Source: Gemmatimonadales bacterium (GTDB lineage: Bacteria > Gemmatimonadota > Gemmatimonadetes > Gemmatimonadales > GWC2-71-9). From it: 64,000 nt of DNA. Shown piece after piece: positions 25,054 to 60,368 of this stretch. Numbering within the stretch: the first letter of the stretch is position 1; every line of letters begins with the position of its first letter. The notes under the pieces are model-generated. The model saw nothing but the letters and a program-made list of their open reading frames with translations, was not told the origin of the DNA and did no database searches. The DNA is taken from NCBI GenBank assembly GCA_041615815.1, contig JBFJCP010000022.1, forward strand, positions 1-64,000, written 5' to 3'. Position numbers and translations under genes: made by a program.

Positions 25054-25123
25054 GCGAATCTCACGAGATGGGTGCCGGCCCAGAATATAGCCCTCGCCCA
25101 CCCCTCGCCGTAACTTTTTCTCC

Positions 25124-29614: not shown

Positions 29615-29672
29615 TGCGGTGTGACGGCGGGATGGGTCGAGCCTTCAGCAACCACGTAACGGTTGAGATCTC

Positions 29673-31241
29673 ATGATTAGACGTCATTTCCAGTACTCGG
29701 TCAAAGGACTGCTCACGCGGCTGATACTAGTCCCGGCCTTGGCGTTCGGACTCGTCACAGGCTGTACGAATCTGGACGAGCAACCGACGAGCGTCATCAC
29801 GCCGGAGAACTTCAACCAGACCGAGGCAGAAATCCTTGGCAGTCTGGCGTCGGTCTACTCGGTGTTGCGCAGCACGCAGTGGAGTTACTACAACCTGAGC
29901 CAGGTGACATCGGACGAAATGATCGTCCCCACCCGCGGGAGCGACTGGTTCGATAACGGTCGGTGGCTCGAGATCCACCGGCATACCTGGAATGCCAACA
30001 GCCCCTCCGGGCTCGATGACATCAACGGAATGTGGGTCGATGCCTTCCGAGGCGTCACCCGGGCCAATGTGCTGCTCGAGGCACTGCAGGCTGTCACCGT
30101 GGCGGATCAAGCGGCCATCGAAGCCGAGGTCCGCACACTCCGCGCCTTCTATTACTACATGTTGTTGGACATGTTCGGTGGCGTGCCGCTCGTAACGACG
30201 ACGGAGATTGGGGCGCGGCCACGCGTCAGCCGCTCCGAAGTCTTCAGCTTCGTTGAAAGCGAGTTGACCGCGGCTCGCGGAGCGCTGCCCGCCAGTTGGC
30301 CGGCGAGCGAACACGGCCGGATCACTCAAGGGGCCGCGGATGCCATTCTGGCGAGCATGTATCTGAACGCCGGAGTGTTCACGACGGAGGCGCCGAATGC
30401 GAACGCGTACAACTCGTGCATGGGTGTCTCGGTGGGGGGCGGAACTGCCTGCGACGCCGCCATTGCGGCGGCGGATCGGATCCTGAACTCCGGTCAGTAT
30501 ACCTTGGCCACGGACTGGCGCTCGAACTTCGAGGCCGGCAACTTTGCCTCGACAGAGAACATCTTCGTCATCAAGAATACGAACCAGACCGGTTTGGGTC
30601 TCAACTTGGTGATGCGGGCGCTACACTACAACCAGTTCAACCCCAGCCCGTGGAACGGCTTCGCGGCCCTGGCGGAGACGTACAACGCCTTCGATGCCGA
30701 TGACCAACGTCGGGAAATCTTCCTCGAAGGACCGCAGGTGAATGTGGAGACCGGCCAGCCAGTCAATGACCGGCAGGGTAATCCATTGGTGTTCACGGTG
30801 GACATCATCGATGAGACCCAGGCCGGGGAAGGCGAGGGGACGCGGGTCCTGAAGTTCTCGCCGGACCCGAACCACGTTGCCGAAAACAACGCGAACGACT
30901 TCACGCTCTTCCGCCTAGCCGAGATCATGCTGATCAAGGCCGAGGCGCTGAACGAGCTGAGCCCGGGCAGCGGCGAAGCGCTTGCCCTGTTGAATACGCT
31001 TCGCGAGCGGGTCTTCGAGCCGGACGAGCCGCTGGCGGCCATCGACCGCGACGTGATTCTGCAGGAGCGGTTGTTTGAGCTCACGTCCGAGGTCAAGCGG
31101 CGATTGGATCTGATCCGACATGGCCGGTTCACCGATGCGTGGTCGTTCAAGCAGGCGGGAGCGCCCCACCTCGTCCTGATGCCGATTCCGCAACTGCAGC
31201 TGGACGCCAACCCGGAGCTCACGCAGAATCCCGGGTACTGA
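29673..31241 (+). CDS. susD: SusD/RagB family nutrient-binding lipoprotein
   Basis: Lipobox LVTG-C; LRAFYYYMLLDMFGGVP, FRLAEIMLIKAEA, ILQERLFEL, DLIRHG, NPELTQNPGY. Confidence 0.93.
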   Translation: MIRRHFQYSVKGLLTRLILVPALAFGLVTGCTNLDEQPTSVITPENFNQTEAEILGSLASVYSVLRSTQWSYYNLSQVTSDEMIVPTRGSDWFDNGRWLEIHRHTWNANSPSGLDDINGMWVDAFRGVTRANVLLEALQAVTVADQAAIEAEVRTLRAFYYYMLLDMFGGVPLVTTTEIGARPRVSRSEVFSFVESELTAARGALPASWPASEHGRITQGAADAILASMYLNAGVFTTEAPNANAYNSCMGVSVGGGTACDAAIAAADRILNSGQYTLATDWRSNFEAGNFASTENIFVIKNTNQTGLGLNLVMRALHYNQFNPSPWNGFAALAETYNAFDADDQRREIFLEGPQVNVETGQPVNDRQGNPLVFTVDIIDETQAGEGEGTRVLKFSPDPNHVAENNANDFTLFRLAEIMLIKAEALNELSPGSGEALALLNTLRERVFEPDEPLAAIDRDVILQERLFELTSEVKRRLDLIRHGRFTDAWSFKQAGAPHLVLMPIPQLQLDANPELTQNPGY

Positions 31242-31270
31242 TTGGGGAAAGTCTCTGTCGTAAGTGTCTA

Positions 31271-31314
31271 CGCCATAGCCTGCTCTCGTCATCGAGGGCA
31301 GGCTGTGGCGTTGT
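31271..31314 (+). terminator. Strong stem-loop after susD (terminator or mRNA stabiliser)
   Basis: CGCCATAGCCTGCTCTCG-TCAT-CGAGGGCAGGCTGTGGCG: 18-bp stem with two G-U pairs; weak U tract (TTGT). Confidence 0.65.
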
Positions 31315-31364
31315 AGGCCGCGTCCCCTGCGTCATACCCTGCCCACCCACTCCGACCCAACGAC

Positions 31365-34300: not shown

Positions 34301-34748
34301 GGACATCTTCACACCCGCGGAACTGGACGATGCCGTGCTGAAGCGGGCGTATACCCTTGCCACGACCCTCGTGCGCAACAACGGCGACGGGTCCTTCACG
34401 CTTCAGCCGCTGCCCACCGAAGCCCAATTGGCCCCCGTCTACGGCATTTTGGCCGACGACCTCGATGGAGACGGCACGCCCGACCTGCTCGTGGCGGGCA
34501 ATTTCGATGCAGTCAAGCCAGAGATCGGCCGGATGAGCGCCAGCTATGGTCTCTTCTTGCGGGGAGATGGAAGGGGTGGTTTTACGCCGGTGCGGACAGC
34601 GGAGAGCGGGTTCTTCGTGCCTGGACAGGCACGGGACGTCCAGCGCATCGGCACGGAGCGAGGGAGCTTGTACGTGGTGAGCCGCAACAACGACCGACCG
34701 CTCGTTTTCCGGGTCGCCGGGAGCGTGTCAGCGCGTGGCGGTCACTGA
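31365..34748 (+). CDS. FG-GAP/VCBS repeat lipoprotein with central ASPIC/UnbV domain
   Basis: Lipobox VLTS-C; many DxxxDGxxD repeats; AIGATVTL..RGFQSSVD..FGVG..VEWPDG; second repeat block follows. Confidence 0.88.
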   Translation: MNRVSGRGLLLAASCVLTSCSADRSAPETRLAEPPEASDQLFSRLPADYTGIRFQNHLSDTRDVNVFTYRNYYNGGGVALGDLTGDGLPELLLTANLGANRLYLNEGEFRFRDVTDEAGIAKKGLWATGVTFADVNGDGLLDIYVCYAGDVAGERRANELYIHQGVGADGVPTFQEMAAAYGIADEGYATHAAFFDYDRDGYLDLYLVNNSPRPVSSFGLRNIRHERHPFGGDRLYRNEGERFRDVSEQAGIFGSEVAFGLGVAVGDVNHDGWPDIYVSNDFFERDYLYINRGDGTFGEQLDRQMPSISFSSMGLDIADVNNDGWLDIYVTDMLPEDDYRLKTTSTFEEWAGYQTKLKNDYHHQFMRNMLHLNNGNGTFSDIGQMAGVARTDWSWSALIADLDLDGYKDIHVTNGILRDVTSQDYVAFLANEETMRAAATSDEVDFLGLIESMSSTALPNYAFRNEGDLTFTNAGAAWGLNTPGFSNGASYGDLDGDGALDLVVNNVNQEASVYRNNARAFLDNRYLQVRLEGEGPNRFAIGATVTLRSGERLLFQELMPSRGFQSSVDYVLTFGVGRVDTVESVTVEWPDGRVSTMTDVATNQRLTIRQKESAGAEPITPSRARPWFVDVTDSVVLGFVHRENTFVDFDRERLMPKMLSMEGPFLAVADVNGDGLDDAFIGGAKDQAGQLLIQQRSGGFVRSNEGLFERDRVSEDLGAVFFDANGDGRRDLYVVSGGSEFSDVAPALQDRLYLNDGRGVFRKTSGHLPSMNISGSRAAPADFDGDGDIDLFVGGRVVPWRYGIDPRSVLLENDGRGRFRDVTRDVAPELPHIGMVTDALWHDVDDDDREDLILVGEWMPITIFRNTGSGKLERVSPPGLERSHGWWNRIVAGDFTGDGRTDFVVGNLGLNTRLRASETQPVTMYVKDFDRNGFVEQILSSYSDGVSYPHVLRDELLRALPGLRERYPTFEAYAKQTVTDIFTPAELDDAVLKRAYTLATTLVRNNGDGSFTLQPLPTEAQLAPVYGILADDLDGDGTPDLLVAGNFDAVKPEIGRMSASYGLFLRGDGRGGFTPVRTAESGFFVPGQARDVQRIGTERGSLYVVSRNNDRPLVFRVAGSVSARGGH

Positions 34749-35209
34749 TCCAGCTGTTTCGGCCGTTCCGGCTGCTTCGTCTTGATGACGATGACGCCGT
34801 TGGCGCCCCGCATACCGTACATGGTCGTGCTGGCGGCGTCCTTCAGCACTTCGATGGATTCGATGTCGTATGGGTTGATCCCGAATAGGGCCCCCCCTGG
34901 TCCCGGTTGGATGGGAACACCATCGATCACGTACAGGGGCTCGTTACTGCCGAGGATCGACGTTCGGCCACGGATGCGTACGGCGATGCCACCGTTGGGA
35001 GAGCGGGTAACAACCACCCCGGGGAATCGGTTCGCGAGCAAGCGTTCGATGGGCTCGCTGGGGTTTTGCTCGATGTCTTCCGCTGTTAGCGTTCGCTCGC
35101 CCGGTTGGTTCGGCTCCGGGGCTTCCTGGACGTCCCCCTCGCCCGTGCTGGCGGCTTGGGCACAGCCAGCCAAGAGCAAGGTGAAGACCAGGGGATGCAA
35201 TGAAGCCAT
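34742..35209 (-). CDS. TonB-dependent receptor plug-domain-only lipoprotein
   Basis: Lipobox LLAG-C; IRIRG-like segment, NEPLYVIDGVP, INPYDIESIEVLKDA..YGMRGANGVIVIKTK; stops without a barrel (155 aa). Confidence 0.85.
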   Translation of the reverse strand: MASLHPLVFTLLLAGCAQAASTGEGDVQEAPEPNQPGERTLTAEDIEQNPSEPIERLLANRFPGVVVTRSPNGGIAVRIRGRTSILGSNEPLYVIDGVPIQPGPGGALFGINPYDIESIEVLKDAASTTMYGMRGANGVIVIKTKQPERPKQLDQ

Positions 35210-35228
35210 AGGCTAATATACCCTTTTT

Positions 35229-35263
35229 GCTCGTGCCGGTGTTCCACCTGCGGCACGGGCTTT
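35229..35263. terminator. Stem-loop between the plug-only gene and GH97
   Basis: GCTCGTGCCG..CGGCACGGGC, 10-bp stem (one G-U), followed by TTT on the + strand. Confidence 0.4.
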
Positions 35264-35293
35264 CGACCGTCCATCCGTAAATGGAGACATTGC

Positions 35294-37330
35294 ATGTGGA
35301 TACGCTGCACGGCCCGTCATGTGTTCGCCGTCATCTGCGGGATGCTGATGGCGACCCCCGCGTCTGCCCTCGCGCAATTCGGTGTCGCATCGCCCGATGG
35401 TCGGAATCATGTCAGGGTTGAGATCCGTGACGGAAGGCTCCATTACAGCGTGCAACGTGACGGGCGGGCGGTGCTTCTTCCGTCGCAGCTCGGATTCGAG
35501 TTCCGAGCAGCGCAGCCGCTGCGAGATGACCTCCAGGTGGTGGACAGCGCTCGTCAGACGGTCGATCAGACATGGACAACGGTTTGGGGCGAGGTCGCCC
35601 GCGTGCGAGATCACCATCATGAGCTGAGCCTCACCGTGGTCGAGACGTCGCCAGCCGGGCGTCGATTCACCGTGGTGTTTCGTGCGTTCGACGACGGCAT
35701 AGGCTTTCGCTACGAGTTTCCGGAGCAGCCCGGGCTCGGAGCGTTCGAAATCACCGAGGAGCTGACCGAGTTTGCCTTGGCGGACGATGCGAGGGCCTGG
35801 TGGATCCCGGCCAATCGGTGGAATCGCTACGAGTTTCTGTATTCCGCATCGCCGGTGAGCCGGATCGACACCGTGCACACCCCGCTCACGCTGGAAGCCC
35901 GTGACGGCACACACCTTGTCATTCACGAGGCCAACCTCGCCGACTACGCGGCCATGAACCTGGCCCGGACCGGAGACCGGAAGCTCCGAGCCTCGTTGGC
36001 CCCCTGGGCCGACGGCGTGAAGGTCCGGGGCCGCGCGCCCTTCGTGACGCCCTGGCGCACGATCCAGCTAGCGAACCGCGCGGCGGATTTGGCGCCTTCG
36101 GTACTGGGACTGAATCTGAATCCGCCCAATGTTCTGGAAAACACGGACTGGATCCGGCCCATGAAGTACATCGGGATTTGGTGGGGCATGCACATCGGCA
36201 CGATGACATGGAGCTCCGGGCCGAAACACGGCGCGACGACCGCGAATACGGAGGAGTACATGGATTTCGCGGCCGCGAACGGGTTCGGCGGCGTTCTGGT
36301 GGAAGGATGGAACCGCGGATGGGACGGTGACTGGATCGCGAACGGAGACCTGTTTTCGTTTACTGAGGCGTATCCCGATTTCGACTTGCAGGCGGTCACC
36401 GATTATGCACGGGAGCGGGGTGTCACGCTGATGGGCCACAACGAGACGTCCATGGGCATCGAGAACTACGAGCGCCAGTTGGAGGACGCGTTCGCCCTCT
36501 ACGAGTCGCTCGGTATGACCGCGGTAAAAACGGGGTACGTGGGTGACCTGACCCGGGACGGTCACGCGCACCACGGGCAGTACATGGTGCGGCACTGGCG
36601 CAAGGTGATCGAAACGGCGGCGCGGCACGGGATCATGGTCAATGCCCACGAGCCGATCAAGGACACCGGGGAACGCCGGACCTATCCGAACATGATGACA
36701 AGGGAAGGGGCGCGGGGTCAGGAGTACAACGCCTGGGCCGGCGACGGCGGCAATCCGCCGGAGCACGAGGCCATCCTCTTCTTCACGCGTCAGTTGGCCG
36801 GCCCCATGGATTTCACGCCGGGTGTGTTCGACATTCTGATCGAGAGCAGCAACGGAACGCCTCGACGCCCCGAGGAATCGCGGATCCGCACGACGCTCGC
36901 CAAGCAGCTTGCGCTCTACGTGGTGCTTTACTCACCCCTCCAGATGGCGGCGGACCTGCCCCAAAACTACGTGAACCAACCTGCGTTCCAGTTCATCCGG
37001 GACGTTGCCGTGGACTGGGAGGACACGCGGGTGCTCGATGGCAAGATCGGCGACTACGTGGTGGTCGCGCGCCAGGAACGTCGTGGCGAGACGTGGTATG
37101 TAGGCGCCATCACCGACGAGGAAGCTCGCACGCTGGATATTTCGCTTTCCTTCCTCGTCCCCGGACGGCGATACGTCGCCGAGATCTACGCAGACGGCCC
37201 TGGAGCCCATTGGCTGCACAACCCGCTGTCCATCGATATTTCAGAGCGTCCCATCGATGCGGGCTCGCGACTCACCCTCTCGTTGGCCGCTGGCGGAGGA
37301 CAAGCGATACGGATTCGGCCGGCCAGATAA
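35294..37330 (+). CDS. GH97 alpha-glucosidase (SusB-like)
   Basis: SPDG N-terminus, TPWRTIQ, KYIGIWWGMH, KHGATTAN, LVEGWN, MGHNET, KTGYVG, AHEPIK, REGARGQE, GPMDFTPG. Confidence 0.93.
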   Translation: MWIRCTARHVFAVICGMLMATPASALAQFGVASPDGRNHVRVEIRDGRLHYSVQRDGRAVLLPSQLGFEFRAAQPLRDDLQVVDSARQTVDQTWTTVWGEVARVRDHHHELSLTVVETSPAGRRFTVVFRAFDDGIGFRYEFPEQPGLGAFEITEELTEFALADDARAWWIPANRWNRYEFLYSASPVSRIDTVHTPLTLEARDGTHLVIHEANLADYAAMNLARTGDRKLRASLAPWADGVKVRGRAPFVTPWRTIQLANRAADLAPSVLGLNLNPPNVLENTDWIRPMKYIGIWWGMHIGTMTWSSGPKHGATTANTEEYMDFAAANGFGGVLVEGWNRGWDGDWIANGDLFSFTEAYPDFDLQAVTDYARERGVTLMGHNETSMGIENYERQLEDAFALYESLGMTAVKTGYVGDLTRDGHAHHGQYMVRHWRKVIETAARHGIMVNAHEPIKDTGERRTYPNMMTREGARGQEYNAWAGDGGNPPEHEAILFFTRQLAGPMDFTPGVFDILIESSNGTPRRPEESRIRTTLAKQLALYVVLYSPLQMAADLPQNYVNQPAFQFIRDVAVDWEDTRVLDGKIGDYVVVARQERRGETWYVGAITDEEARTLDISLSFLVPGRRYVAEIYADGPGAHWLHNPLSIDISERPIDAGSRLTLSLAAGGGQAIRIRPAR

Positions 37331-40300
37331 TGGTGCGGGATTCACGTCCTAGCGTCTCCAAAGGGTACGCCGCGGGGCGCAGAGGGAGCCACCGGGGCCC
37401 CACCCGAACGGTGCCACTGATCGGCACAGCTGTCCTATTCTTGACGGCCTGTGACCGTACGGAGCACCCCCCTCCGCTGTTCGAGCTTCTTCCTCCCGAA
37501 CGAACCGGGATCGCGTTCGTCAACGAGGTAGTGGACACGCCTGAGCTCAGCATCCTCAACTATCTCAATTTCTACAACGGTGGCGGTGTGGCGGCTGGTG
37601 ACATCGATGGCGACGGCCTCGCGGATCTCTACTTCACGTCGAACCTGGGGTCCAATCGGCTCTATCGTAACCTGGGCGATTTCCGATTCGAAGACATCAC
37701 CGAGCGAGCCGGCGCAGGAGCGGTTGAAGGCTGGAAGACGGGCGTGACGTTCGCCGACGTCAACGGCGACGGATACCTCGACATCTACGTCTCGACCGTC
37801 ACCCACCTTACGGTGCGTGGACGCAATGTGCTGTTCGTGAACGACGGTGATGGCACGTTCACGGACCGGACCGCGGAATACGGACTCGAGCATGTCGGCT
37901 ACTCGACCCAGGCCACCTTCTTCGACTATGACGAAGACGGAGACCTGGACATGTATCTCTTGAACCACTCGACACACGAGGAACGCGGAAGAACTTGGAA
38001 CCCGCAGCGCGAGACACGCCACCCCAAGGCAGGCGATCGCCTCTTCCGGAACGAGGGCCTCCGCTTCCTCGATGTCAGCGAGGTGTCCGGCATATACGGC
38101 GGTGTCGAAGGGTACGGTTTGGGGGTAGTGGTCAGCGACCTGAATGTCGATGGCTGCCCCGACATCTTCGTCGCCAACGATTTTCACGAGAGTGACTTTC
38201 TCTACCGCAACAACTGCGACGGCACCTTCACCGAGTCCATCGCCACCTCAACCGGACACACCAGCTTTTCCTCGATGGGCGTCGATGCCGCCGATTTCAC
38301 CAACGACGGCAGGACGGACCTCGTGGTTCTCGACATGCTCCCGGAGCGCGAGGAGATCCTGAAACGCTCCGCTAACGCGGAAGACTTGAATATCTATCAG
38401 ATGAAGCAGCAGGCCGGTCGTCATTCGCAATACGGCCGAAACACGCTTCAGGTGAATCGTGGCCGCGGCCGATTCAGCGAAATCGGCTATCTGGCAGGCG
38501 TGTATGCGACCGACTGGAGTTGGGCGGCGCTGTTTTCCGACCTGGACAACGACGGGTACAAGGACCTGTTCGTCACCAACGGCATCTACCGGCGGCCCAA
38601 TGATCTGGACTACATCAGCCACGTGGCGGACCGCGCGGTCCAGGCCGCTCTCGAGCAAGGCATCACGACTGAGCTTCTCACGACGCTGTTGGCAAAGATG
38701 CCCCAAGTGCCGATTCCCAACTTCGCCTATCGGAACAACGGCAATCTGACCTTCACCGACATGGCCGACCCGTGGGGCTTGGCACAGCCGGGGTTCTCGA
38801 CGGGCGCCGCCTACGTGGATCTCGACAACGACGGTGCGCTCGATCTTGTCGTGAACGACATCAACGGGCCTGCGGGGATCTACCGAAACCGCGCCCGCGA
38901 GATCGATGGCCACCATTACCTGACGGTCCACCTGAAAGGAACCGGGGCGAATACGAGCGGCATTGGCGCAAAGGTCGTCATTCACCATGACGGCCGGATG
39001 CAGCTGCTCGAGCAAATGCCAACTCGAGGTTTTCAATCTTCGGTCGACCCGCGCCTCCATTTTGGATTGGGAGCCTCCCAGCGGATAGACTCGCTGATCG
39101 TCATCTGGCCGGACCGTCGTTATCAGGTCCTGGGAGATGTGGCGACAGACCAGACGGTCACGCTTTCCCAGCAGGACGCGTCTGGCCGGTATGCGTACCG
39201 CAAGGACCAGGGGAGCCAGCCGCTGTTCGAGAACGTCACCGCTCAGCTCACCATCGATGTCAACCATTTGGAGAACAGGTTCTTCGACTACACGCGCCAG
39301 CCGCTCATCCCGCACCAGCTCTCCACCGAAGGACCTGCCCTCGCCGTCGGTGACGTCAATGGCGATGGTCTGGACGACCTCTACGTGGGCGGTGCCAAGT
39401 GGCAACCGGGACGGCTCTTGGTTCAGCGGCGTGATGGCACGTTCGGCCGCGTCAATGAGCGTGTCTTCCGTGCCGACAGTCTGCACGAAGACGTGGACGC
39501 GGTGTTCTTCGATGCCAACGGCGATGGATTTCAGGACCTCTATGTCGTGAGCGGCGGCAACGAGTTCTGGGGAGATCATGGGGCGCTACAGGATCGGTTG
39601 TACGTCAACGACGGACAGGGTCGTTACCATCGAGACGAAGTCGCCCTCCCAGCATTCTTCGAGAACGGGTCCTGCGTGGTGCCGGGCGACTTCGACGGCG
39701 ACGGTAACCTCGACCTCTTCGTCGGGAGCCGGGTGATCTCCCGGCGCTACGGTCTCATCCCACGTAGCTACCTCCTGCAGAACGACGGCATGGGTCGATT
39801 CCGCGATGTGACCATAGAGCAAGCGGAGGCGCTGGCTGAAGTGGGAATGGTGACTTCCGCCACCTGGGTGGATTACGACGACGACGGGCGGCTCGACCTG
39901 ATCGTCGTTGGAGAGTGGATGCCGATACGGGTTTTTCAGCAGCAGGATGGCCGGTTCGTAGACCGCACCGTTGAGGCGGGGTTTGCGAAGACGAGTGGCT
40001 GGTGGAATCGCGTGGTAGCGGCCGACCTACGAGGGACGGGACGCCCGGATCTCATTCTCGGCAACCTGGGGTTGAACTCCTACATCCGGGCATCATCCGA
40101 TGAACCGGCGCGGCTGTACATCCATGATTTCTCTCAGAACGGGGCGGTGGAGCAGATTCTCACGTTTCCCAAGCATGGCGTGAGCTACCCGATGGCGAGT
40201 CGGGACGATCTGATCCGAGCGATTCCGCAACTGCGGAGCCGGTACGCCTCCTATGCCGACTTCGGGGCCAGCCGGATCGAGGATATTTTCTCGGCGTCGG

Positions 40301-40719
40301 AACTGCGCGAGGCACAGGTCCGGGAAGCGCGTCTGTTTGCTAGCTCCGTGGCTCTGAACAACGGAGACGGTTCCTTCGATCTCCAGCCGCTACCCATCGA
40401 GGCCCAGTACGCCCCGGTCTACGCCGTGCAACCGGAAGACTTCGATGGTGACGGGCACACCGATCTCGTTATCGCAGGCAATTTCTTCGAGGTTCCGCCC
40501 GTGCGCGGGCGATATGATGCCAGCTATGGCCTCATGCTTCGCGGTGACGGGGCGGGCAGGTTCGCAGCGGTGGACCTGGAGACGAGCAATCTCGTGATCG
40601 TTGGACAGGTGCGGGACCTGGAGCTGCTGCAATACGCGGACGGCAGCCGGCTAATTGTCGTGGCGCGGAACAATGAAACGGTCCAGATTTTCCGTCCGCT
40701 CGCGCTCAAACGGCCCTGA
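37330..40719 (+). CDS. FG-GAP/VCBS repeat lipoprotein with ASPIC/UnbV domain (paralog of 31365-34748)
   Basis: Lipobox FLTA-C; same architecture (GIGAKV..RGFQSSVD..HFGLG..IWPD). Start ATG 37330 overlaps the GH97 TAA; GTG 37411 is an alternative. Confidence 0.88.
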   Translation: MVRDSRPSVSKGYAAGRRGSHRGPTRTVPLIGTAVLFLTACDRTEHPPPLFELLPPERTGIAFVNEVVDTPELSILNYLNFYNGGGVAAGDIDGDGLADLYFTSNLGSNRLYRNLGDFRFEDITERAGAGAVEGWKTGVTFADVNGDGYLDIYVSTVTHLTVRGRNVLFVNDGDGTFTDRTAEYGLEHVGYSTQATFFDYDEDGDLDMYLLNHSTHEERGRTWNPQRETRHPKAGDRLFRNEGLRFLDVSEVSGIYGGVEGYGLGVVVSDLNVDGCPDIFVANDFHESDFLYRNNCDGTFTESIATSTGHTSFSSMGVDAADFTNDGRTDLVVLDMLPEREEILKRSANAEDLNIYQMKQQAGRHSQYGRNTLQVNRGRGRFSEIGYLAGVYATDWSWAALFSDLDNDGYKDLFVTNGIYRRPNDLDYISHVADRAVQAALEQGITTELLTTLLAKMPQVPIPNFAYRNNGNLTFTDMADPWGLAQPGFSTGAAYVDLDNDGALDLVVNDINGPAGIYRNRAREIDGHHYLTVHLKGTGANTSGIGAKVVIHHDGRMQLLEQMPTRGFQSSVDPRLHFGLGASQRIDSLIVIWPDRRYQVLGDVATDQTVTLSQQDASGRYAYRKDQGSQPLFENVTAQLTIDVNHLENRFFDYTRQPLIPHQLSTEGPALAVGDVNGDGLDDLYVGGAKWQPGRLLVQRRDGTFGRVNERVFRADSLHEDVDAVFFDANGDGFQDLYVVSGGNEFWGDHGALQDRLYVNDGQGRYHRDEVALPAFFENGSCVVPGDFDGDGNLDLFVGSRVISRRYGLIPRSYLLQNDGMGRFRDVTIEQAEALAEVGMVTSATWVDYDDDGRLDLIVVGEWMPIRVFQQQDGRFVDRTVEAGFAKTSGWWNRVVAADLRGTGRPDLILGNLGLNSYIRASSDEPARLYIHDFSQNGAVEQILTFPKHGVSYPMASRDDLIRAIPQLRSRYASYADFGASRIEDIFSASELREAQVREARLFASSVALNNGDGSFDLQPLPIEAQYAPVYAVQPEDFDGDGHTDLVIAGNFFEVPPVRGRYDASYGLMLRGDGAGRFAAVDLETSNLVIVGQVRDLELLQYADGSRLIVVARNNETVQIFRPLALKRP

Positions 40720-40766: not shown

Positions 40767-41597
40767 TCATCGGAGCGGCCATCGAAGGCCACGGTGCGCT
40801 GACGGAGCCGCCTGCGCGTCGGGCTGCGCCGCCTCAGCACGTGATTTCCACCACATCTCGACGAGCAGCGCGGCCGGCCCGACAATGAAAAGTGCGTAAA
40901 ATGGCGCATAGATGACCTCGGCGAGCCGGAGCAGCATCTCGACGAACGCGACGAGGAACACGACGACGATCGCGCCTCGCTTGGATGATACCGTGGTCTT
41001 TGGGTCCGTGATCATGAACAGCGCGAAGAGCTGGTACATGGGCCCCGTGATTGGGGCGATCTCCGCTGCGAACGAGCTGTCTGTGAATACAGTCCGCACG
41101 TAGGCGAAGACGAAAAAGGACGCTACGTACGCCAACGTGATGTGTGCGCGCTTGGCTAGCCAAATCGCATTCAGGCCCACCGTCCAAATGACGAGCATCG
41201 GCCACAGGTCGTTCCCCCACTGAACGCTCAACGGCGCTACGGCAAAGGGCGCCAGGAAGAGCAGGGCGCAGATGCCGAAGTTGGATGGATTCCAGAGGTG
41301 TCGCCCCTTCATTCGTAGGACGTACTTCGACATGATGGAGAGCACCCCACCCACCGCGTAGGGCCACAGCACGGGCGAACGCACGAGGATGGCAATGCTG
41401 ATGCCGGAGATGTAGGCACTGACGAGCTGCTGCGGCCGGCCCGTGAGAAGACGCCGTAGCGCGAATTCTGTCGCCATGGCCGAAAAGATCGCGAGGGCGA
41501 TCGCCTCGTAGCCGCGCAACACCCCGTAAGACCAGTGAGCGCCGATCAGGATGAGCGTAATGAGAAGTGGCGCCGTCAGGCGCCGGTCGTACTTCAT
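40767..41597 (-). CDS. RnfD/NqrB-like (UnbU-like) polytopic membrane protein
   Basis: Hydrophobic ~276 aa; SKYVLR..HLWNPSNFG and FMITDPKT resemble RnfD/NqrB motifs. ATGA overlap with the upstream gene. Confidence 0.75.
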   Translation of the reverse strand: MKYDRRLTAPLLITLILIGAHWSYGVLRGYEAIALAIFSAMATEFALRRLLTGRPQQLVSAYISGISIAILVRSPVLWPYAVGGVLSIMSKYVLRMKGRHLWNPSNFGICALLFLAPFAVAPLSVQWGNDLWPMLVIWTVGLNAIWLAKRAHITLAYVASFFVFAYVRTVFTDSSFAAEIAPITGPMYQLFALFMITDPKTTVSSKRGAIVVVFLVAFVEMLLRLAEVIYAPFYALFIVGPAALLVEMWWKSRAEAAQPDAQAAPSAHRGLRWPLR

Positions 41598-43432
41598 TGC
41601 GGCTCCGTGAGGGCGTGCAGAGTGTTGATGGCGGGCGATGGGATCGTCTGTACGGTACCGGAGGGCCAGCGGATCACGATACTGTCGACCTGCGACGCGG
41701 GGCCCAACCCGTAGTGTGCCCGACGCTGGTTCTGCGAGGCAAACCCGTTGCCGCCATCGATCTGCTGAATCTGCTCCGTGCCCGCCCAATAGAGGTGCAG
41801 CTCCGCACCGATGGCGCTCCGATTGCTACGGGTGCCCTCCAACGCGAACGCGATCCAGCCGTGCTCGGCCCTGACCGTGTTCTTGTAGACCAAGAGTGGC
41901 CCGCGCTGATACGCCACCACGACGTCAAGCACGCCGCGGTTCCAGAGATCGGCGACCGCTACGGCACGCCCATCGTATCGATTGACCACCCCAACGGCCG
42001 GGGTCACGTCTTGGAATCGGCCCGTTCCGTCGTTCAGCCACACGCGGTCCGCTTGGTAGCCTGAGAGGCTGCGCCCCCGCATGGCGGGCCAATTGCTCGC
42101 GTCGGCGATAATGTTGCGATGGCCACCGGCGACCATGGAGTAGTCGTACCAATAGCTGTCCCGCGTCTCGCCCGAGACGAAGCCGTTGGTCACGAAGAGA
42201 TCGAGCCAGCCGTCGTTGTTCAAGTCACCAAACTGCGCACCGAAGGCAAAACCAGCCAACTCCACCCCCATGGCGCCGGCTAGGTTCCGATAACGGGGTG
42301 CCCCGCCCGAGTCATGCGTGGGCACCCACAGGTCGTTGCCGTGGATGAGCACCCCGGGCTCCGAGATGTTGGTCACGTAGAGCGTCCACTCGCCACGGTT
42401 CAGGACATCTCCGAACGATGCGTTCATCCCGCTCTTCGGCGTGCGAGCGACGTTCGCCTCGCGGCCGACCTCGCGGAAGCGCCGGCCTCGATCGTTGATG
42501 TACAGCTCGTTGATCCCGAAATCATTCGCGACGAAGAGATCTGGATCGCCGTCGTGGTCCACATCCGCGGCCGCCGCGGCGAGCGTCCAGCGCTCGCTCG
42601 TCAGACCGGTGGCCTCAGCAACTTCTTCGAAGATGCCATCGCCCCGATTACGGAAGAGATAGTTGCGTCCACCATTCTGCGCATACTCGAAGCTCTCGGG
42701 CATCACGCGGGTGTTGGTGAGATTCCACAGATTCAGGTCCGCGGGATAGAACCCACCCACGAAGAGATCGATCCAGCCATCACGGTCGTAGTCGAACCAG
42801 ACAGCCGCGTTGGCGTTGATCCAATCGGGCAAGTTGGCGGACTCAGTGACGCGCGTGAAACCGCTCCCGCGGTCGTTGTGGAACAGCTCGGGGCGACCCC
42901 ACCGGTACAGGAACAGGTCCTCATAGCCGTCGTTATCGTAGTCCCCCCACACGGCTCCCATCGAGACACCGGTGGCCCGGTGATTCACCTCCGCCACGCC
43001 CAGTGGAGCGGCCACGTCTTCGAAGGTGCCGTCCTGCCGGTTGCGATAGAGCGCGTTCCGGCTACCCACTGCGCTGTTCGTCACGTACAGGTCCTGCCAG
43101 CCGTCGCGGTCGAAATCCGTGACCGAGACGGCGGCACCGTACGCCGCTACCGCCGGCATGATGGGCTCGAGTTTAGGGTCGAGCATTGGTGGCTGGTGGG
43201 TGAACCGGATGCCGGCAGCATCCGAAACCGCTTGGAGTGCGAAGCCGTAGCGCTCGAGAGCCGCCGGCACGCTCAGTCCGGCATCGTCCGCCCGGGAGCC
43301 CGACGAGAAGTACCGGACGGCAACCGGCGTGGCGAGGAGCCCAAGGAAGACGAACGCCGTGAGAGCCTTGAGAAAGCGACGCGGCCGTGGGGCCGCCGCT
43401 CCCTCAACGGTCGATTCTGGGCGCGAGTGCAC
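41594..43432 (-). CDS. CRTAC1/UnbV-like protein (FG-GAP repeats plus C-terminal ASPIC/UnbV)
   Basis: N-terminal TM; DFDRDGWQD, DYDNDGYED, DLNNDGWLD; SNRSAIGA..GGNGFASQ..HYGLG..IRWPSG. Confidence 0.88.
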   Translation of the reverse strand: MHSRPESTVEGAAAPRPRRFLKALTAFVFLGLLATPVAVRYFSSGSRADDAGLSVPAALERYGFALQAVSDAAGIRFTHQPPMLDPKLEPIMPAVAAYGAAVSVTDFDRDGWQDLYVTNSAVGSRNALYRNRQDGTFEDVAAPLGVAEVNHRATGVSMGAVWGDYDNDGYEDLFLYRWGRPELFHNDRGSGFTRVTESANLPDWINANAAVWFDYDRDGWIDLFVGGFYPADLNLWNLTNTRVMPESFEYAQNGGRNYLFRNRGDGIFEEVAEATGLTSERWTLAAAAADVDHDGDPDLFVANDFGINELYINDRGRRFREVGREANVARTPKSGMNASFGDVLNRGEWTLYVTNISEPGVLIHGNDLWVPTHDSGGAPRYRNLAGAMGVELAGFAFGAQFGDLNNDGWLDLFVTNGFVSGETRDSYWYDYSMVAGGHRNIIADASNWPAMRGRSLSGYQADRVWLNDGTGRFQDVTPAVGVVNRYDGRAVAVADLWNRGVLDVVVAYQRGPLLVYKNTVRAEHGWIAFALEGTRSNRSAIGAELHLYWAGTEQIQQIDGGNGFASQNQRRAHYGLGPASQVDSIVIRWPSGTVQTIPSPAINTLHALTEPQ

Positions 43433-46400
43433 GATGGAAGATCCGCGGCGTCACGTAGCGGGTGTGAAAAACCTTCCAGTCTTCCGGGTGGCGGCGGTAC
43501 GCCGGATCGTCCTCCAACCGGCCCGGTGGGCGGGCATAGTCGGACATCCCATGATAGGGCAGTGGGAGGACGGTCGTCGAGAAGCCCGTATTGTAGTCTC
43601 CGTCTTTCACCCAACCGTCGCCGATGAGCACGAAGTCGCGCGTCCAGCCTTCCGGTGGGGCAGACGGGGCCGGAAATCGGAGAACCAATTCGTCTCCTGC
43701 GTTCATTATAGTATATCGGTCGTCGATAGCCTCGTTCAAAGGGCGTACGTCGCCGAAGCGGGTATGGAAGCCTACGAGGTCCCGCCACTGTGGTACCGCG
43801 GTGACAATCTCGTTGTAGTCCGGAAGCTCGGGTGCGGTACGGCGAGCCTGCGTCACTTGCGAGAAGCCGCGGTACCGCAGCTCGGCCGTGGTGGGGAGGA
43901 GCCGGTGCACAGCGACCGGTGCGTCGGGCTGGCCTACCGTCCACGCGATCTGATCCCAATAGATCTCCATGTTGGTGCGCAGACGCACGTGGCGCGGCGT
44001 CGCAGGTCGGAAGGCGTGCTGCAGATCGATGAGTATCGTTTTCGTTTTTCCGGCCGGGAACCCGATATCGGAATCCACGATCGTCCAACCCCCGTTGCCG
44101 TCCGGCACCTCGAGCTGCAGCCCGCGCGGCCCAGGATGGTCGCCCTGGGTGACGGCGACATTGATGGAGGCATCGGTGGGATACACCCATCCGGATGCGA
44201 CCAGCCAGAGCGGTTCTTCGGTAGGGACATCGGTACCGAGTGCGATCTCGACATAGTGCTCGCGGGCGATACCCTGGTAGTCACCCAGTTCGAACGTGTC
44301 TACGAAACGCTCGTCACGCGTACGGATCAATCCGGTCACGTCGCGCCCCGCATCATCCCGAACCCAGGCCACGGCACGGAGCGGTTGCATGACGTGCACC
44401 GTACGTGCGGGTGGAGGGAGCGTGAAGCGTTCGTCGACGAACACCTCAGTACCCGTTGGATGGTCTACGACCATCAGCGAGACGTGATCGAAGAAGTGTG
44501 TTTCCCACAGCTCCGCCGTGATGCGCACGTCATAGAACCCGTTGCGCGGAGCCAACTGATCGCCCCGGATCTTGATCCAGTCCTCGCTGTGGATCACCGT
44601 CGCGTCTCCCTGCGCGTTGATCCGCAGACCGAGCGCCGAGCGCCAGATGAAATCCGTCACGAACTGCATCCCTTCGCCATCGAACGTGAACACCCAGGGA
44701 CACGAGCCCTTGAGCCGCTGTCGCGTCAGGATCGTCTCGTTGGTGGCCGAGAGGTTGAACTCGGCTTGGACGGTCCCATTGGGCCAGATGATGCGGGCGA
44801 CATCCACTTGCGGGTGCTCTCCCAGGCCGACGTGGATGGCAGGACCCTGGATCACCTGCTTCTGGTACAGCAGGCCCGCCCTGATCTCGATCTCCCCGCC
44901 TATTCCGAACGAATTGATGCGTCGATCCCCGGTAGTCTGTGCTGCCTGAGGGCGGATGTTGGTCGAGTAATAGTCCGTAGTGCCGCGGTTGACGAGCAAC
45001 CGTGTCGCACCGTCCGACGACACACCGATCAGGTCGAGCCGACCCTCACCGCTGACGTCGGCGATACTCGTGATCTGGATATCCACCGGTGAGAGGAGTC
45101 TCAACCCGAGCGCCGTGTTGAGCCACACCCGTGCGCTGGAGGCCGCGGATGCCACGAGATCGAGATCGCCATTGTTATCCAGATCGGTCACGAAGAGTCG
45201 TGTCGCTGAAGGACCGGTCGGTGAGAAGTCCGGCCACCGCGTGAGCGCTTCGGCTTCCCAGTCCCCCTCCTCGAGCGAGAGCCGGCTCAGTGTCCCGTCT
45301 GCCCGGAGGAGCACCAGGTCCAGGATCGCGTCCCGGTTCAGGTCCGAGGCGGCGATCGCGTGCACGGACCCGAGCGTATCCGGCACCGGGAGTGGCTCGA
45401 ACTGCGGAACGCGGAAGCGGCCGTTACGGAACACGCGTAGGCGGCCGTCCGCGTCGAGGAGCGCGGCATCCGGGTCACCATCGGCATCCAGATCGGCCCA
45501 CACGAAATCACGCACACCGGCCGTTCCCTGAAACTCGGGATAGAGCTCGAATCGCCCGTCGCCCCGATTGCGGAGCACCACGGGGGCGCCCTCCGTCGCT
45601 CCGAGCACGAGATCCAAGTCACCCTCCATGTCCAGGTCGGCGGCCCAAACGCCGGCGTACGACCCAACGGCCACACCCCGCGGGAAGGCCTCGCGCGTCA
45701 CATCCGTGAAGGAGCCGCTCCCGTCCTGACGGAGCAGGCGAAGTCCGCCCGGAGTTGCCAGTGCCAGGTCCATCCGGAAGTCGTCGTTGTAGTCCAGCGG
45801 TGCAATAACAGCCGGCGAAAACGGCGCAGTCGCTGGTCCAGCAGGGAACTCGAACGCCTCGACCCGGCCGGGCTCTGGTGAGATCCACACGGTCCCAGGC
45901 CTCGCAGCGACCAGCGCGAGCGGCACCTCGTCGCTGAGCCACAGCGCACGCACCCAGGCCATGGGTCCAGCCGGTGCCACCGAGAGCGTCTCCGGCAGGA
46001 ACTGGAGCCCCGTATCCGGCGGGGCCGACTGCGCGGAGGGGTTGGGCAGCCGCACGAAACGCGTCAGCAGGAGTTCCACTCGGCTCGGCGAGGCGAGCAC
46101 AGCGTCCTGGTCGTCGGCATAGGCGGGTAGGGGCTGCAACTCCGCCTGCAGAAACGCGATCTGGGTGGCGGCACGGGCAAATGCGCCTGCCTCACCGGCG
46201 CTCAGCACCACCCGAAGCTCGTCGGCGAGGGGGAACGACAGGCGATCGGCCCGAGCGCCAATGCGGTCGAGCGTCTGGCGGAGCGCCCCCAGGTCCTGCA
46301 GTTTGGCGGCGAGGCGCGCGCGTTCGAGCAGGGCCACCAGATTCTCGGGCTGCACGGCCAGAATCCGCTCGATCAGCTGCGCTGCGTCTACGTCGCTCTC

Positions 46401-46934
46401 GGGGCGATCCTCTTGTTCGACGACCTGGGCCAGGAGATAGAGGGCCCGGAGGCTTCCGGGGTCGAGTTCGACGGCGCGCCGAAGGTGTTCCGTGGCCGCG
46501 TCGGGGCGCCCTCGCTCGCGCGCGACGAGCGCGGAGATAAACAGGATGCGGCTGTCCTCGGGAGCAAGCCGGCGTGCTTCTTCGAGCCGGTCCGCCGCCT
46601 GGTCCAATTCGCGTCGTTGGAGCGCGATCATCCCGCGATTGGCCCAGCCGGCCGGCTCTCGGGGGATGAGTTCCGTGAAGCGCGCGAAGGCGGCTTGGGC
46701 GAGCCCGCTCTCCCCGGCCTGAGCGGCCGCCACACCGCGGTAGAAGGCCGTAACGGCATCCGCGTAGGTGGGGGACGAAGGGTCGGGGAGATCGCGCCCG
46801 CAGGCCGCTGCACCCAAGGCGAACACGAGCGCGGCGGAAGTGTGAAGAGCGACTCTCAACGGGCCTGACCGATGTTCCTGGGGAAGTTGCTCAAGGAGTT
46901 TTGGGAAGCTAGATCCGTGGGTGAGAGGGCGCAA
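43404..46934 (-). CDS. TPR + FG-GAP + ASPIC/UnbV lipoprotein with a long uncharacterised C-terminal domain
   Basis: Lipobox GAAA-C (true start probably ~25 codons downstream); TPR helices; DLDMEGDLD, DLDNNGDLD; GIGGEIE..HVGLG..IWPNG; then KGSCPW.. domain. Confidence 0.82.
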   Translation of the reverse strand: MRPLTHGSSFPKLLEQLPQEHRSGPLRVALHTSAALVFALGAAACGRDLPDPSSPTYADAVTAFYRGVAAAQAGESGLAQAAFARFTELIPREPAGWANRGMIALQRRELDQAADRLEEARRLAPEDSRILFISALVARERGRPDAATEHLRRAVELDPGSLRALYLLAQVVEQEDRPESDVDAAQLIERILAVQPENLVALLERARLAAKLQDLGALRQTLDRIGARADRLSFPLADELRVVLSAGEAGAFARAATQIAFLQAELQPLPAYADDQDAVLASPSRVELLLTRFVRLPNPSAQSAPPDTGLQFLPETLSVAPAGPMAWVRALWLSDEVPLALVAARPGTVWISPEPGRVEAFEFPAGPATAPFSPAVIAPLDYNDDFRMDLALATPGGLRLLRQDGSGSFTDVTREAFPRGVAVGSYAGVWAADLDMEGDLDLVLGATEGAPVVLRNRGDGRFELYPEFQGTAGVRDFVWADLDADGDPDAALLDADGRLRVFRNGRFRVPQFEPLPVPDTLGSVHAIAASDLNRDAILDLVLLRADGTLSRLSLEEGDWEAEALTRWPDFSPTGPSATRLFVTDLDNNGDLDLVASAASSARVWLNTALGLRLLSPVDIQITSIADVSGEGRLDLIGVSSDGATRLLVNRGTTDYYSTNIRPQAAQTTGDRRINSFGIGGEIEIRAGLLYQKQVIQGPAIHVGLGEHPQVDVARIIWPNGTVQAEFNLSATNETILTRQRLKGSCPWVFTFDGEGMQFVTDFIWRSALGLRINAQGDATVIHSEDWIKIRGDQLAPRNGFYDVRITAELWETHFFDHVSLMVVDHPTGTEVFVDERFTLPPPARTVHVMQPLRAVAWVRDDAGRDVTGLIRTRDERFVDTFELGDYQGIAREHYVEIALGTDVPTEEPLWLVASGWVYPTDASINVAVTQGDHPGPRGLQLEVPDGNGGWTIVDSDIGFPAGKTKTILIDLQHAFRPATPRHVRLRTNMEIYWDQIAWTVGQPDAPVAVHRLLPTTAELRYRGFSQVTQARRTAPELPDYNEIVTAVPQWRDLVGFHTRFGDVRPLNEAIDDRYTIMNAGDELVLRFPAPSAPPEGWTRDFVLIGDGWVKDGDYNTGFSTTVLPLPYHGMSDYARPPGRLEDDPAYRRHPEDWKVFHTRYVTPRIFHRALAPRIDR

Positions 46935-47083: not shown

Positions 47084-48703
47084 GTGGGCTTACTAGCCAG
47101 TTTCGACTGGGTCGTGATCGGCCTGTATTTCGTGCTTGTCTTCGGCGTCGCCATCTGGGCAACCATGCGGGAGCGCGCGGACCGCGGGACATCCCAGGAC
47201 TACTTTCTCGCGGGCCGTCATGCGGGTTGGTTCATCGTCGGCGGCTCACTATTCGCCTCCAACATCGGATCCGAGCACCTCGTGGGCCTGGCGGGAACGG
47301 GGGCGGCAAGCGGCGTGGCCGTGGGACAGTTCGAGGTCCTCGCTTCGCTGATCCTGTTGATTCTCGGTTGGGTGTTCGTGCCGTTCTACCTGTCGAGTGG
47401 CGTCTTCACCATGCCCGAGTTCCTCGAACGACGTTACTCGGCGGGTGCCCGGTGGTACCTGGCGGTCATCTCCATCATCGGCTACGTGCTGACCAAGATC
47501 TCGGTCACGATCGCTGCCGGCGGCATCGTCTTCGAGGCGATCATGGGGATCGACTTTTGGACCGGTGCGCTCGTGGTCGTGGTGGTGACGGGAGTGTACA
47601 CCATCTTCGGCGGACTGCGCGCCGTGTTGTATACGGACTTGCTGCAAATGTTCGTGTTGATCGGTGGCGCGGTGGCGGTCACACTCCTGGGGCTCAGCGC
47701 CTTGGGTGGCTGGGGCGCCATGACGGACACCGTGGGTCCCGGATTCCTCACGCTGTGGAAGCCAATGTCGGACCCGGACTTTCCGTGGACCGGCATTCTC
47801 TTTGGAGCGCCGATCCTCGGCGTGTGGTACTGGTGCACGGACCAGTTCATCGTGCAACGCGTGCTGGCGGCCACCAACCCGGATCATGCTCGTCGCGGAA
47901 CAGTATTCGCCAGCTACCTGAAGCTGCTGCCGCTCTTCATTTTCGTGATCCCGGGCGTGATCGCCTTCGCACTCTCGCAGCAGGGTCGGCTACAGCTCGA
48001 CGCGCCAGACCAGGCGTTGCCCACGCTCATCGCCGTGCTGCTGCCGATCGGGTTGCGCGGCCTCGTGGTGGCCGGATTGCTGGCGGCGCTCATGAGCTCG
48101 CTGTCTTCCGTGTTCAATTCCACTTCCACGTTGGTCACCCTGGACGTCTACAAGAAGCTTCATCCCGAAGCACCGGAACGACGGCTGGTGCTGGTGGGCC
48201 AGGTCACCACCGCGGTGCTCGTGGTGTTCGGCCTACTGTGGATCCCATTCATGAAGCTGATCTCCGGGCAGCTCTACCAGTATCTGCAGAGCGTGCAGGC
48301 GTACATCTCGCCCCCGATCGCGGCAGTATTCTTGATTGGCGTCCTGTGGCAGCGCGTCAACGCAAACGGCGCCATCGCGGCCCTCATTACGGGATTCGTG
48401 CTGGGTATGGGGCGACTGGTGGTGGAAATCAGCCAACCACTCCAAAAAGGGTTCCTGGAGACCTACGCGGACATCAACTTCCTGCACTTCGCCGTGATCC
48501 TTTTCGTGATCTGCACGGCGGTCCTGGTGATCGTGAGTCTGCTGACGCCAACGCCGCCCGCACCGAAGGTGGCCGGCCTGACATTCGCCACGCAAGAACC
48601 GACAACCGCCGCAGAATCCGATCCTCGCTGGCGCCGAAGGGATCTCGTGCTGAGCGTACTAGTGGTGATGTGCGTGGGGTTGGTGTGGATCTACTTTTCG
48701 TGA
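47084..48703 (+). CDS. Sodium:solute symporter (SSS, sugar-type)
   Basis: DYFLAGR, SLFASNIGSEHLVGLAG, TMPEFLERRY, GGLRAVLYTD, YWCTDQFIVQRVL, AALMSSLSS. Confidence 0.93.
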   Translation: MGLLASFDWVVIGLYFVLVFGVAIWATMRERADRGTSQDYFLAGRHAGWFIVGGSLFASNIGSEHLVGLAGTGAASGVAVGQFEVLASLILLILGWVFVPFYLSSGVFTMPEFLERRYSAGARWYLAVISIIGYVLTKISVTIAAGGIVFEAIMGIDFWTGALVVVVVTGVYTIFGGLRAVLYTDLLQMFVLIGGAVAVTLLGLSALGGWGAMTDTVGPGFLTLWKPMSDPDFPWTGILFGAPILGVWYWCTDQFIVQRVLAATNPDHARRGTVFASYLKLLPLFIFVIPGVIAFALSQQGRLQLDAPDQALPTLIAVLLPIGLRGLVVAGLLAALMSSLSSVFNSTSTLVTLDVYKKLHPEAPERRLVLVGQVTTAVLVVFGLLWIPFMKLISGQLYQYLQSVQAYISPPIAAVFLIGVLWQRVNANGAIAALITGFVLGMGRLVVEISQPLQKGFLETYADINFLHFAVILFVICTAVLVIVSLLTPTPPAPKVAGLTFATQEPTTAAESDPRWRRRDLVLSVLVVMCVGLVWIYFS

Positions 48704-60341: not shown

Positions 60342-60368
60342 AGGCGCGCCTGAGTTCAGTTGAGTCAC

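Follow-up and report, generated by a model that had tools for sequence, protein, structure and literature searches.

An E4/E5-like gene pair in a Gemmatimonadales sugar locus: a candidate riboflavin-based membrane redox module

A 64,000-nt stretch of DNA from a Gemmatimonadales bacterium (GWC2-71-9; GenBank assembly GCA_041615815.1, contig JBFJCP010000022.1, positions 1-64,000 of the forward strand), here called the window, carries three overlapping genes on the reverse strand, designated A, B, and C. Gene C (40767..41597) codes for a membrane protein of 276 aa, counted from its ATG, which has the RnfD/NqrB fold and is devoid of the loop that carries the threonine-bound flavin mononucleotide (FMN). 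Gene B (41594..43432) codes for a protein of 612 aa that has a membrane anchor at its N-terminus, an FG-GAP beta-propeller and an ASPIC domain. We consider it likely, with a probability of about 0.55, that B and C constitute a minimal redox module in the membrane which is based on riboflavin and has a periplasmic propeller as its cap; a redox role of the pair as such is rated at the same level. This reading builds on the fold of C, the loss of its loop, the conservation of residues, the adjacency of the genes, the existence of gene fusions, the clade relations to the enediyne proteins E4 and E5, and a predicted B-C interface; from these we infer riboflavin binding, electron transfer, the electron source, and a role for protein A.

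Protein C, its predicted flavin pocket, and its propeller partner

A preliminary description of the window had recorded the overlaps between the three genes (29 nt for A/B; 4 nt, ATGA, for B/C), which the coordinates of the open reading frames (ORFs) confirm, and had called C RnfD/NqrB-like and A and B ASPIC/UnbV proteins. The Pfam results agree: C matches PF03116 with 36.5 bits (cut-off 27.7) and no other family, B matches FG-GAP_3 and UnbV_ASPIC (73 bits), and A matches TPR, FG-GAP_3, and UnbV_ASPIC (26.1 bits, cut-off 23.4). The AlphaFold2 model of C (pLDDT 83) is most similar to RnfD in a Foldseek search (E 1e-7, TM 0.67), and a VIA search places two RnfD structures and NqrB on top (Z 19.2, 18.8, and 18.7, respectively; next best 10.7). 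A phmmer search of C against the PDB returned no match, a profile reached RnfD only at E 0.014, and hhalign of the C alignment against one NqrB gave a probability of 5%. The link of C to RnfD therefore rests on Pfam, the fold searches, and the multiple alignment.

The segment which carries the flavinylated threonine has 74-85 residues in nine canonical NqrB/RnfD proteins of relatives, 33-36 residues in 82 C sequences, and 39-42 residues in seven E5 sequences. In C itself the linker has 33 aa, so that the whole loop (about 50 aa) is gone and not the motif alone. The flavinylation motif [S/T]GA[S/T], already reported as lacking in C, is absent from A, B, and C alike; it occurs in 1 of the 82 C rows and is not conserved.

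The riboflavin ligands of NqrB are T162, G198, N200, N203, A205, F342, and D346 (PMC10643135). Double mutants of N200, N203, and D346 lose riboflavin, and the same mutations leave the Km for sodium unchanged (PMC9293633). We placed the NqrB numbering on the NqrB of a relative (locus L093), where the residue spacing agrees with the published numbers, and then read it across the alignment. NqrB T162 corresponds to S/T64 of C, N200 to H100, N203 to N103, F342 to F194, and D346 to D198. These residues lie in the H100-x-x-N103-P-x-N106 motif (41280..41300) and in FMITDP (residues 194-199; 41001..41018); NP (103-104) and FMITDP had been noted previously and are indeed kept. All 112 rows, made up of 82 C, 23 distant, and 7 E5 sequences, have H100, N103, and D198, and 111 of them have S/T64. 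Among 32 diverse rows, only seven columns are invariant (K91, H100, N103, P104, L190, D198, and P199). The HxxNPxN pattern is the mark of the E5-like superclade described below. As read from this alignment, C keeps the riboflavin-pocket residues of NqrB, with N200 changed to His, and it probably binds riboflavin.

The preliminary description had also suggested a link to the membrane quinone pool. According to PMC10643135, any change of NqrB G141 would block quinone binding. The equivalent column is M41 in C, and it holds I in 42 and L in 17 of the 82 rows. The structural alignment of C to 7xk3_B begins at residue 49, past the helices with L26, A29, and L33, and the N-terminal amphipathic helices of NqrB (AH-I/II) have no counterpart in C. 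Alignment and model thus indicate that the NqrB-type ubiquinone site is not kept, and a direct link to the quinone pool through C is unsupported.

Protein B has one hydrophobic segment (residues 21-39) which follows a basic stretch and represents the membrane anchor. Its residues 428-452 (42077..42151) form an insertion that is common to E4 and is predicted to dock on the outer face of C. W428, W448, and P449 occur in at least 94% of 17 B rows, in all 11 E4 rows, and in 0-1 of 16 other ASPIC paralogues, most of which have no B/E4-type insertion at all. When B and C were co-folded with FMN, the ipSAE was 0.79 (0.79, 0.80, and 0.77 in the individual runs) while the best of three controls reached 0.00. 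The runs share at least 89% of their contacts, with a partner pLDDT of at least 83. The ipSAE mark is reached by 116 of 157 solved complexes and by 2 of 215 mismatched pairs, counts which apply only roughly to B-C, for which custom alignments and a ligand were used. In the model, the B anchor (18-43) packs on C 73-93, and B 428-452, 246-250, and 358-365 touch C 111-131, 172-187, and 227-229.

In RnfD from C. tetanomorphum, FMN is held by helices III, V, VIII, and X at their outer ends (PMC9588780). With N103 and D198 as anchors of the helix assignment against that description, the segments of C touched by B would be the same helix ends, and the B insertion is therefore predicted to cover the face that FMN has vacated. 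In P0206 and P0213, an E5-like half and an E4-like half are fused into a single chain. By sequence search, no like complex is found among solved structures, B matching only CRTAC1 (9etn, E 7e-24) and C only RnfD. The envelope complex that had been proposed thus receives support from modelling for its B-C part, and it is very likely, from the model, that B and C form a complex.

After RnfD and NqrB, the fold of C is closest to urea and ammonium transporters (Z 8.5-10.7). It could thus be a channel or transporter of the urea/Amt type for small solutes or ions, its outer mouth gated or fed by B and its pocket residues lining a pore without flavin. The predicted capping of the outer face of C by B fits this, as do the lack of cofactor motifs in B, the lack of a cytosolic redox partner, and the TonB-dependent receptors close to 15 of 52 loci and to 11 of 27. 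However, the invariant columns of C coincide with experimentally defined riboflavin ligands of NqrB, whose mutation abolishes riboflavin binding and leaves the Km for sodium as it was, and redox genes recur near the loci. We consider a channel unlikely.

Conservation of the pair and its relation to enediyne E4/E5

A GTDB scan, in which the closest named relatives are Gemmatimonadota, gave at least 555 confirmed relatives, from which the best 80 loci were kept (65 from Acidobacteriota, 4 each from Gemmatimonadota and Balneolota, 3 from Rhodothermota, 1 each from Pseudomonadota and Verrucomicrobiota, and 2 unassigned). In genome samples, a match was found in 44 of 301 genomes of the own phylum (a count that includes distant paralogues), in 25 of 151 from the class of a Balneolaceae genome, here called Rhodothermia, and in 31 of 251 from the phylum Acidobacteriota (including distant paralogues and the unpublished G495, which enters this count alone and contributed no sequence). 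A C orthologue is present in 136 loci, 132 of which are testable for gene order; B is directly upstream of C in 131 of these, in several phyla. B has an A-type gene before it in 89 of 118 loci (62/66, 11/30, 13/19, and 3/3 in the individual sets). The neighbourhood survey thus upholds conservation as a unit for the B-C pair and not for the whole trio as previously proposed: since B-C adjacency is nearly invariable and A is present in only part of the loci, the conserved unit is the pair, A being frequent but optional.

Protein C matches genes of enediyne cassettes on Streptomyces plasmids. On the C-1027 plasmid NZ_CP013739, it matches E5 (32%, E 5e-19) and B matches E4 (27% over 595 aa, E 3e-47); the best E4 match in the Gemmatimonadales genome is B. 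The CRTAC1- and RnfD-annotated genes that precede the polyketide synthase (PKS) on this plasmid we take to be SgcE4 and SgcE5. In a tree of 45 ASPIC proteins, computed by quick search only, B, E4, one fusion protein, and two paralogues from locus L017 fall together on a single branch (SH-aLRT 99). For 32 membrane proteins, a careful tree places C and E5 in separate clades (100/100 each) within one superclade (97/94). The superclade also holds a DUF2330-linked clade, while ApbE-linked and canonical RnfD/NqrB proteins fall outside, with the caveat that the tool warns of the long branches of these two outer groups meeting. Judged from these trees, B and C are sister clades of E4 (UnbV) and E5 (UnbU) and are not nested in them. 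The homology to E4/E5 claimed in the preliminary description is thus borne out by the pairwise matches and by phylogeny.

Enediyne pathways share the conserved proteins E3, E4, and E5, whose function is called unknown in PMC9992847, PMC9682884, and PMC10760148; together with the enediyne PKS (PKSE) and a thioesterase (TE) they build the enediyne core (PMC10760148). A tblastn search with SgcE3/E2 gave no match in the genome and in the best 80 loci; the same query finds L189, a locus treated below. The PKSE search returned only short matches at the level of ketosynthase/acyltransferase domains elsewhere (assembly completeness 95.7%), a thioesterase not being searched for. Pfam searches for DUF1702 were blank but also silent in control genomes and are uninformative on their own. 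The absence of pksE, also claimed beforehand, is in line with these searches, by which the locus is a PKS- and E3-free sister of E4/E5 and not an enediyne cassette. In full-text literature, among the matches listed and with most subscription journals outside the coverage, we found no paper tying E5/UnbU to RnfD or riboflavin and none on PKS-free E4/E5 pairs. A diiodotetrayne intermediate was reportedly described by Gui et al. in 2024.

A narrower form of the redox reading, along the lines proposed for E3/E4/E5, would make the pair a tailoring enzyme that desaturates or halogenates a lipid-like or polyene metabolite, with the sugar locus as a mere landing site among ASPIC genes. The grouping of B with E4, the common W428, W448, and P449, and the part played by E3/E4/E5 in building the enediyne core speak for it, as do genes for halogenase-like flavin adenine dinucleotide (FAD) enzymes close to 8 of 52 loci and to 6 of 27, in three phyla. 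These genes, however, score far below the NCBIfam halogenase cut-offs and are absent from most loci, and neither DUF1702/E3 nor PKSE was found in the genome or the best 80 loci. We judge such a specialised role to be quite unlikely. Near B-C, a halogenase-like FAD enzyme and a RaSEA-like radical SAM protein occur together in L060, L078, L125, L130, L131, L133, L135, L137, L194, and L195; most of these clusters, which come from three phyla, add an asparagine-synthase-like protein.

Several other E4/E5-type loci were encountered. L189 (3363-13405; G505 from the Acidobacteriota sample) has a complete DUF1702-E4-E5-PKSE cassette and a probable thioesterase gene, and may represent an enediyne-type pathway outside Actinobacteria. 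Three further Acidobacteriota loci, L190 (7925-10749), L191 (9562-12480), and L192 (7505-10410), carry E4/E5-type pairs without E3 or PKS which are nearer to the enediyne proteins than B/C (E4 identity 38-46%; L190 and L191 within the E5 clade). L191 adjoins the NapH-like/YtkA/His-rich module that is seen near Acidobacteriota B-C loci; RoxA-like cytochrome c proteins precede the pairs of L191 and L192, and a catalase-like protein also precedes that of L191. On a Serratia proteamaculans plasmid (NZ_MT039191; L083:1-12619), DUF1702, E4-like, and E5-like genes lie beside stand-alone ketosynthases, together with an FAD oxidoreductase, a glycosyltransferase, and a histidine methyltransferase; no PKSE is present in the 20.6 kb examined. 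On a Metabacillus plasmid (L082:9330-10717), the gene for an E5-like RnfD protein overlaps a redoxin gene near a mercury-resistance cluster. In the sister clade of FMN-loop-less RnfD-like proteins, DUF2330 (PF10092) is adjacent (L176-L178 and L186) or fused (L184, L185, L187, and L188), and there is no E4 propeller; this clade keeps HxxNPxN and TDP/SDP, which suggests interchangeable outer caps.

Genomic surroundings and protein A

The assembly has nqrE-, nqrF-, and apbE-like genes on another contig, C66 (3.9 kb; 163-3112), where they begin 163 nt from the contig start; nqrF and apbE were named from sequence and not by library scan. No canonical NqrB/RnfD and no FMN_bind (NqrC-type) protein was found in the 95.7%-complete assembly, and nqrA-D are probably unassembled. 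The earlier statement that Rnf/Nqr subunits are lacking holds for the locus, with none in the scanned window region or in recurring neighbour clusters, and does not hold for the genome. With nqrE-, nqrF-, and apbE-like genes present and no canonical NqrB found, one might take C for the NqrB/RnfD subunit of the Na+-NQR that the genome itself encodes, in a displaced position. This we reject: C has neither FMN-Thr loop nor quinone site and scores 29.8 on TIGR01946 (cut-off 207), the NqrC-type protein is missing as well, and the nqr contig starts just before nqrE. Moreover, both same-genus genomes carry a canonical NqrB/RnfD plus a separate C orthologue, so that C is, by sequence comparison, a paralogue and not a pump subunit.

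The surroundings are those of a sugar locus, as described beforehand, with genes for SusC, SusD, GH97, GH13, two sodium:solute symporters (SSS), two glucose-methanol-choline (GMC) oxidoreductases, GSDH, and Gfo/Idh/MocA. On the forward strand, a convergent set (26522..40719) comprises SusC-like and SusD proteins, two double-propeller ASPIC proteins (31365-34748 and 37093-40719), and GH97. The divergent SSS gene (47084..48703, forward strand, from the library scan) is confirmed; it is kept only in the closest relatives. A promoter and terminator scan of the locus gave no signal above shuffle level.

A carbohydrate link in other genomes had been predicted. The panel used here consists of 28 queries taken from genes of the window and of these loci, and is thus biased toward finding such a link; only loci of at least 15 kb were counted, which dropped 28/80, 6/33, and 2/20. 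Any panel match was found in 17 of 27 Gemmatimonadota loci and SusD in 11 of 27, compared to 12/172 and 0/172 of 20-kb tiles from the own genome. For Rhodothermia, the counts are 9/18 and 8/18, with SusC-SusD directly after A-B-C in six loci; in five of these genomes, 70 SusD matches are spread over 20.6 Mb and thus concern no more than about 7% of tiles. For Acidobacteriota, the counts are 8/46 and 0/46; Acidobacteriota may seldom have SusD at all. By this panel, the link is apparent in Gemmatimonadota and Rhodothermia and not in Acidobacteriota. It may be partly positional, because kin are not independent and ASPIC paralogues cluster.

Recurring neighbours in Acidobacteriota are a NapH/MauN-like membrane ferredoxin (29/46; E 1e-8, below the cut-off), a YtkA-like protein (23/46), and a His-rich membrane protein (26/46). 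Multiheme cytochromes are found near 7 of 27 Gemmatimonadota loci.

Three further features of the window were noted. Genes for GMC oxidoreductases, gluconate 2-dehydrogenase subunit 3, a 3-keto-disaccharide hydrolase, Gfo/Idh/MocA, and TIM-barrel proteins (17757-25945 and 58051-60545) together resemble the oxidation-elimination pathway of glycoside cleavage; two Rhodothermia loci (L166 and L167) have a similar set flanking the trio. An 863-aa ORF (51527-54118, forward strand) matches no Pfam or NCBIfam family and is conserved near the locus in several Gemmatimonadota (L001, L111, L112, and L126). A multiheme cytochrome c fused to TPR (55815-58016, forward strand) lies between a glucose/sorbosone dehydrogenase and a GMC oxidoreductase, and homologues are found near B-C in L055, L124, and L133.

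Gene A (43404..46934) is an ORF of 1176 aa that combines TPR repeats, an FG-GAP propeller, and ASPIC/UnbV with a C-terminal region which is all-beta and spans about 440 aa. Based on the N-termini of orthologues, its true start is probably a TTG at about 46856, followed by a 19-residue lipoprotein signal which would end at Cys45. A strict lipobox pattern is found in 16 of 29 orthologues, and most of the others among the 25 listed still show a Cys. The C-terminal 527 residues have a confident all-beta model (pLDDT 87.6). Residues 738-1176 (43407..44723) match no NCBIfam and no Pfam family, and Atlas matches are hypothetical proteins only. The fold includes a galactose-binding-like jelly roll with weak generic CBM32/35 matches (Z 8-9.4), tied with non-sugar jelly rolls; Foldseek and VIA searches with the whole 527-residue model gave no clear match, a result which applies mainly to model residues 179-355. 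Cys745 (KGSCP; codon 44700-44702), E811, D816, and H893 are invariant in 81 A rows. Cys745, which opens the C-terminal region and is the only Cys of A besides the lipobox, may be a metal ligand, a nucleophile, or a processing site. A was also considered as a substitute for E3 and rejected, as it has no similarity to DUF1702.

With TPR, FG-GAP, and ASPIC interaction domains in A and B, a jelly roll of the carbohydrate-binding-module (CBM) type in A, and loci that are often clusters of ASPIC paralogues, B-C, with or without A, might be a non-catalytic envelope scaffold or sensor in which any flavin is a structural or sensing ligand. Yet no signalling domain or regulator recurs among the neighbour clusters of B-C loci, and E4/E5 are part of a conserved biosynthetic cassette, so that we regard a scaffold or sensor as improbable.

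The proposed module and its comparison with known systems

We propose that B and C form a two-subunit inner-membrane complex which would act as a one-flavin redox relay. C, having lost the loop for covalent FMN, would hold riboflavin in a cytoplasm-side pocket by NqrB-type residues. The propeller of B with its Trp-bearing insertion would cap the vacated outer FMN face and thereby close a reaction chamber on the periplasmic surface of the membrane, in which a substrate or partner would exchange electrons with the flavin. The electrons would come from distinct redox partners, for instance the NapH-like protein of Acidobacteriota, rather than from a quinone site on C; lineage-specific partners would supply donors and substrates. 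A, as an optional lipoprotein, would act as a scaffold or capture the substrate. In this genome, the module might help to process, in the periplasm, what the neighbouring SusC/SusD system imports; this sugar-specific step is the weakest of those proposed, and we consider it doubtful.

A number of points weigh against a flavin-based module. The score of the B-C co-fold concerns the two proteins and not the FMN added to them. NP and TDP may be structural motifs of a urea/ammonium-channel-like fold, their conservation then not being flavin-specific, and the N200 ligand is replaced by His. C has neither an NAD-binding domain nor an RnfC-like neighbour nor a quinone site of the NqrB type that would point to an electron donor. 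As regards an outer acceptor, B is devoid of Cys and of heme and flavinylation motifs, and the only Cys of A besides the lipobox is C745. ApbE is found near just 1 of 79 loci. Finally, the tallies are not independent, because the 80 GTDB loci are the closest matches and mostly from Acidobacteriota.

As regards RnfD/NqrB, C has the same inverted five-helix fold (Z about 19), scores above the PF03116 cut-off, and has the riboflavin-pocket residues, but it differs by the deletion of the FMN-Thr loop, the lack of the G141 rim and of the amphipathic helices, and the change from N200 to His. The trio locus differs from Rnf and Na+-NQR operons in having no RnfA/E/G/C/B and no NqrA/C/D/E/F.

Nqr/Rnf-like two-subunit systems (PMC11334425 and PMC8238504) also are without the flavinylated Thr and, like C, have a stand-alone NqrB/RnfD-like domain capped by one extracytosolic subunit. 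They have, however, a C-terminal NAD-binding domain (PF00175), a partner of the FMN-bind type, and ApbE in the cluster, whereas C has no NAD domain, its cap is an unflavinylated FG-GAP/ASPIC propeller, and its clade is a different one (97/94). As a side observation, ApbE-linked RnfD-like proteins of 299 aa from Gemmatimonadota (L139-L143 and L149) have the same 33-residue linker but NxxNPAA; in the one that was scanned, no NAD-binding domain was detected, unlike in the published systems.

B shares the FG-GAP propeller and the ASPIC domain with CRTAC1/ASPIC-UnbV proteins and differs in having a membrane anchor and the E4-type insertion, the latter being absent from most other ASPIC paralogues. 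With enediyne E4/E5, B-C have in common the gene order, propeller before membrane protein, as well as the loop deletion, HxxNPxN, TDP, and the W...WP insertion. E4/E5 differ by being encoded together with E3/DUF1702 and PKSE, both not found here, and by their separate clades; the trio differs from the enediyne cassette in that its usual third gene codes for a large TPR-ASPIC lipoprotein.

The locus and its relatives provide, by sequence comparison, a cofactor hypothesis for E4/E5, namely riboflavin in an NqrB-type pocket, as well as a predicted architecture, in which the E4 insertion caps the site once used by FMN, and specific residues as targets for mutation. The PKS-free homologues, of which this locus is one of many, make the function of E4/E5 directly testable. 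The NqrB site has been called the only known catalytic riboflavin-binding motif (PMC9293633); if our reading is correct, a stand-alone family using this site would extend its chemistry beyond respiratory pumps. For genome mining, labels such as "enediyne biosynthesis protein E4/E5" or "RnfD" on such genes do not equate to an enediyne pathway or an Rnf complex. Taken together, it seems possible, although we hold this broader view with less confidence than the module itself, that E5/UnbU-type proteins are a widespread third branch of RnfD/NqrB, serving as minimal riboflavin membrane redox modules in which interchangeable extracytoplasmic caps (E4/ASPIC propeller, DUF2330, redoxin) have taken the place of the loop for covalent FMN. 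The E4-E5 pair would then be an enzyme that works by a riboflavin radical and has its chamber on the surface of the membrane, performing oxidative enediyne-core chemistry in Streptomyces and periplasmic redox reactions on imported substrates in Gemmatimonadota, Rhodothermia, and Acidobacteriota.

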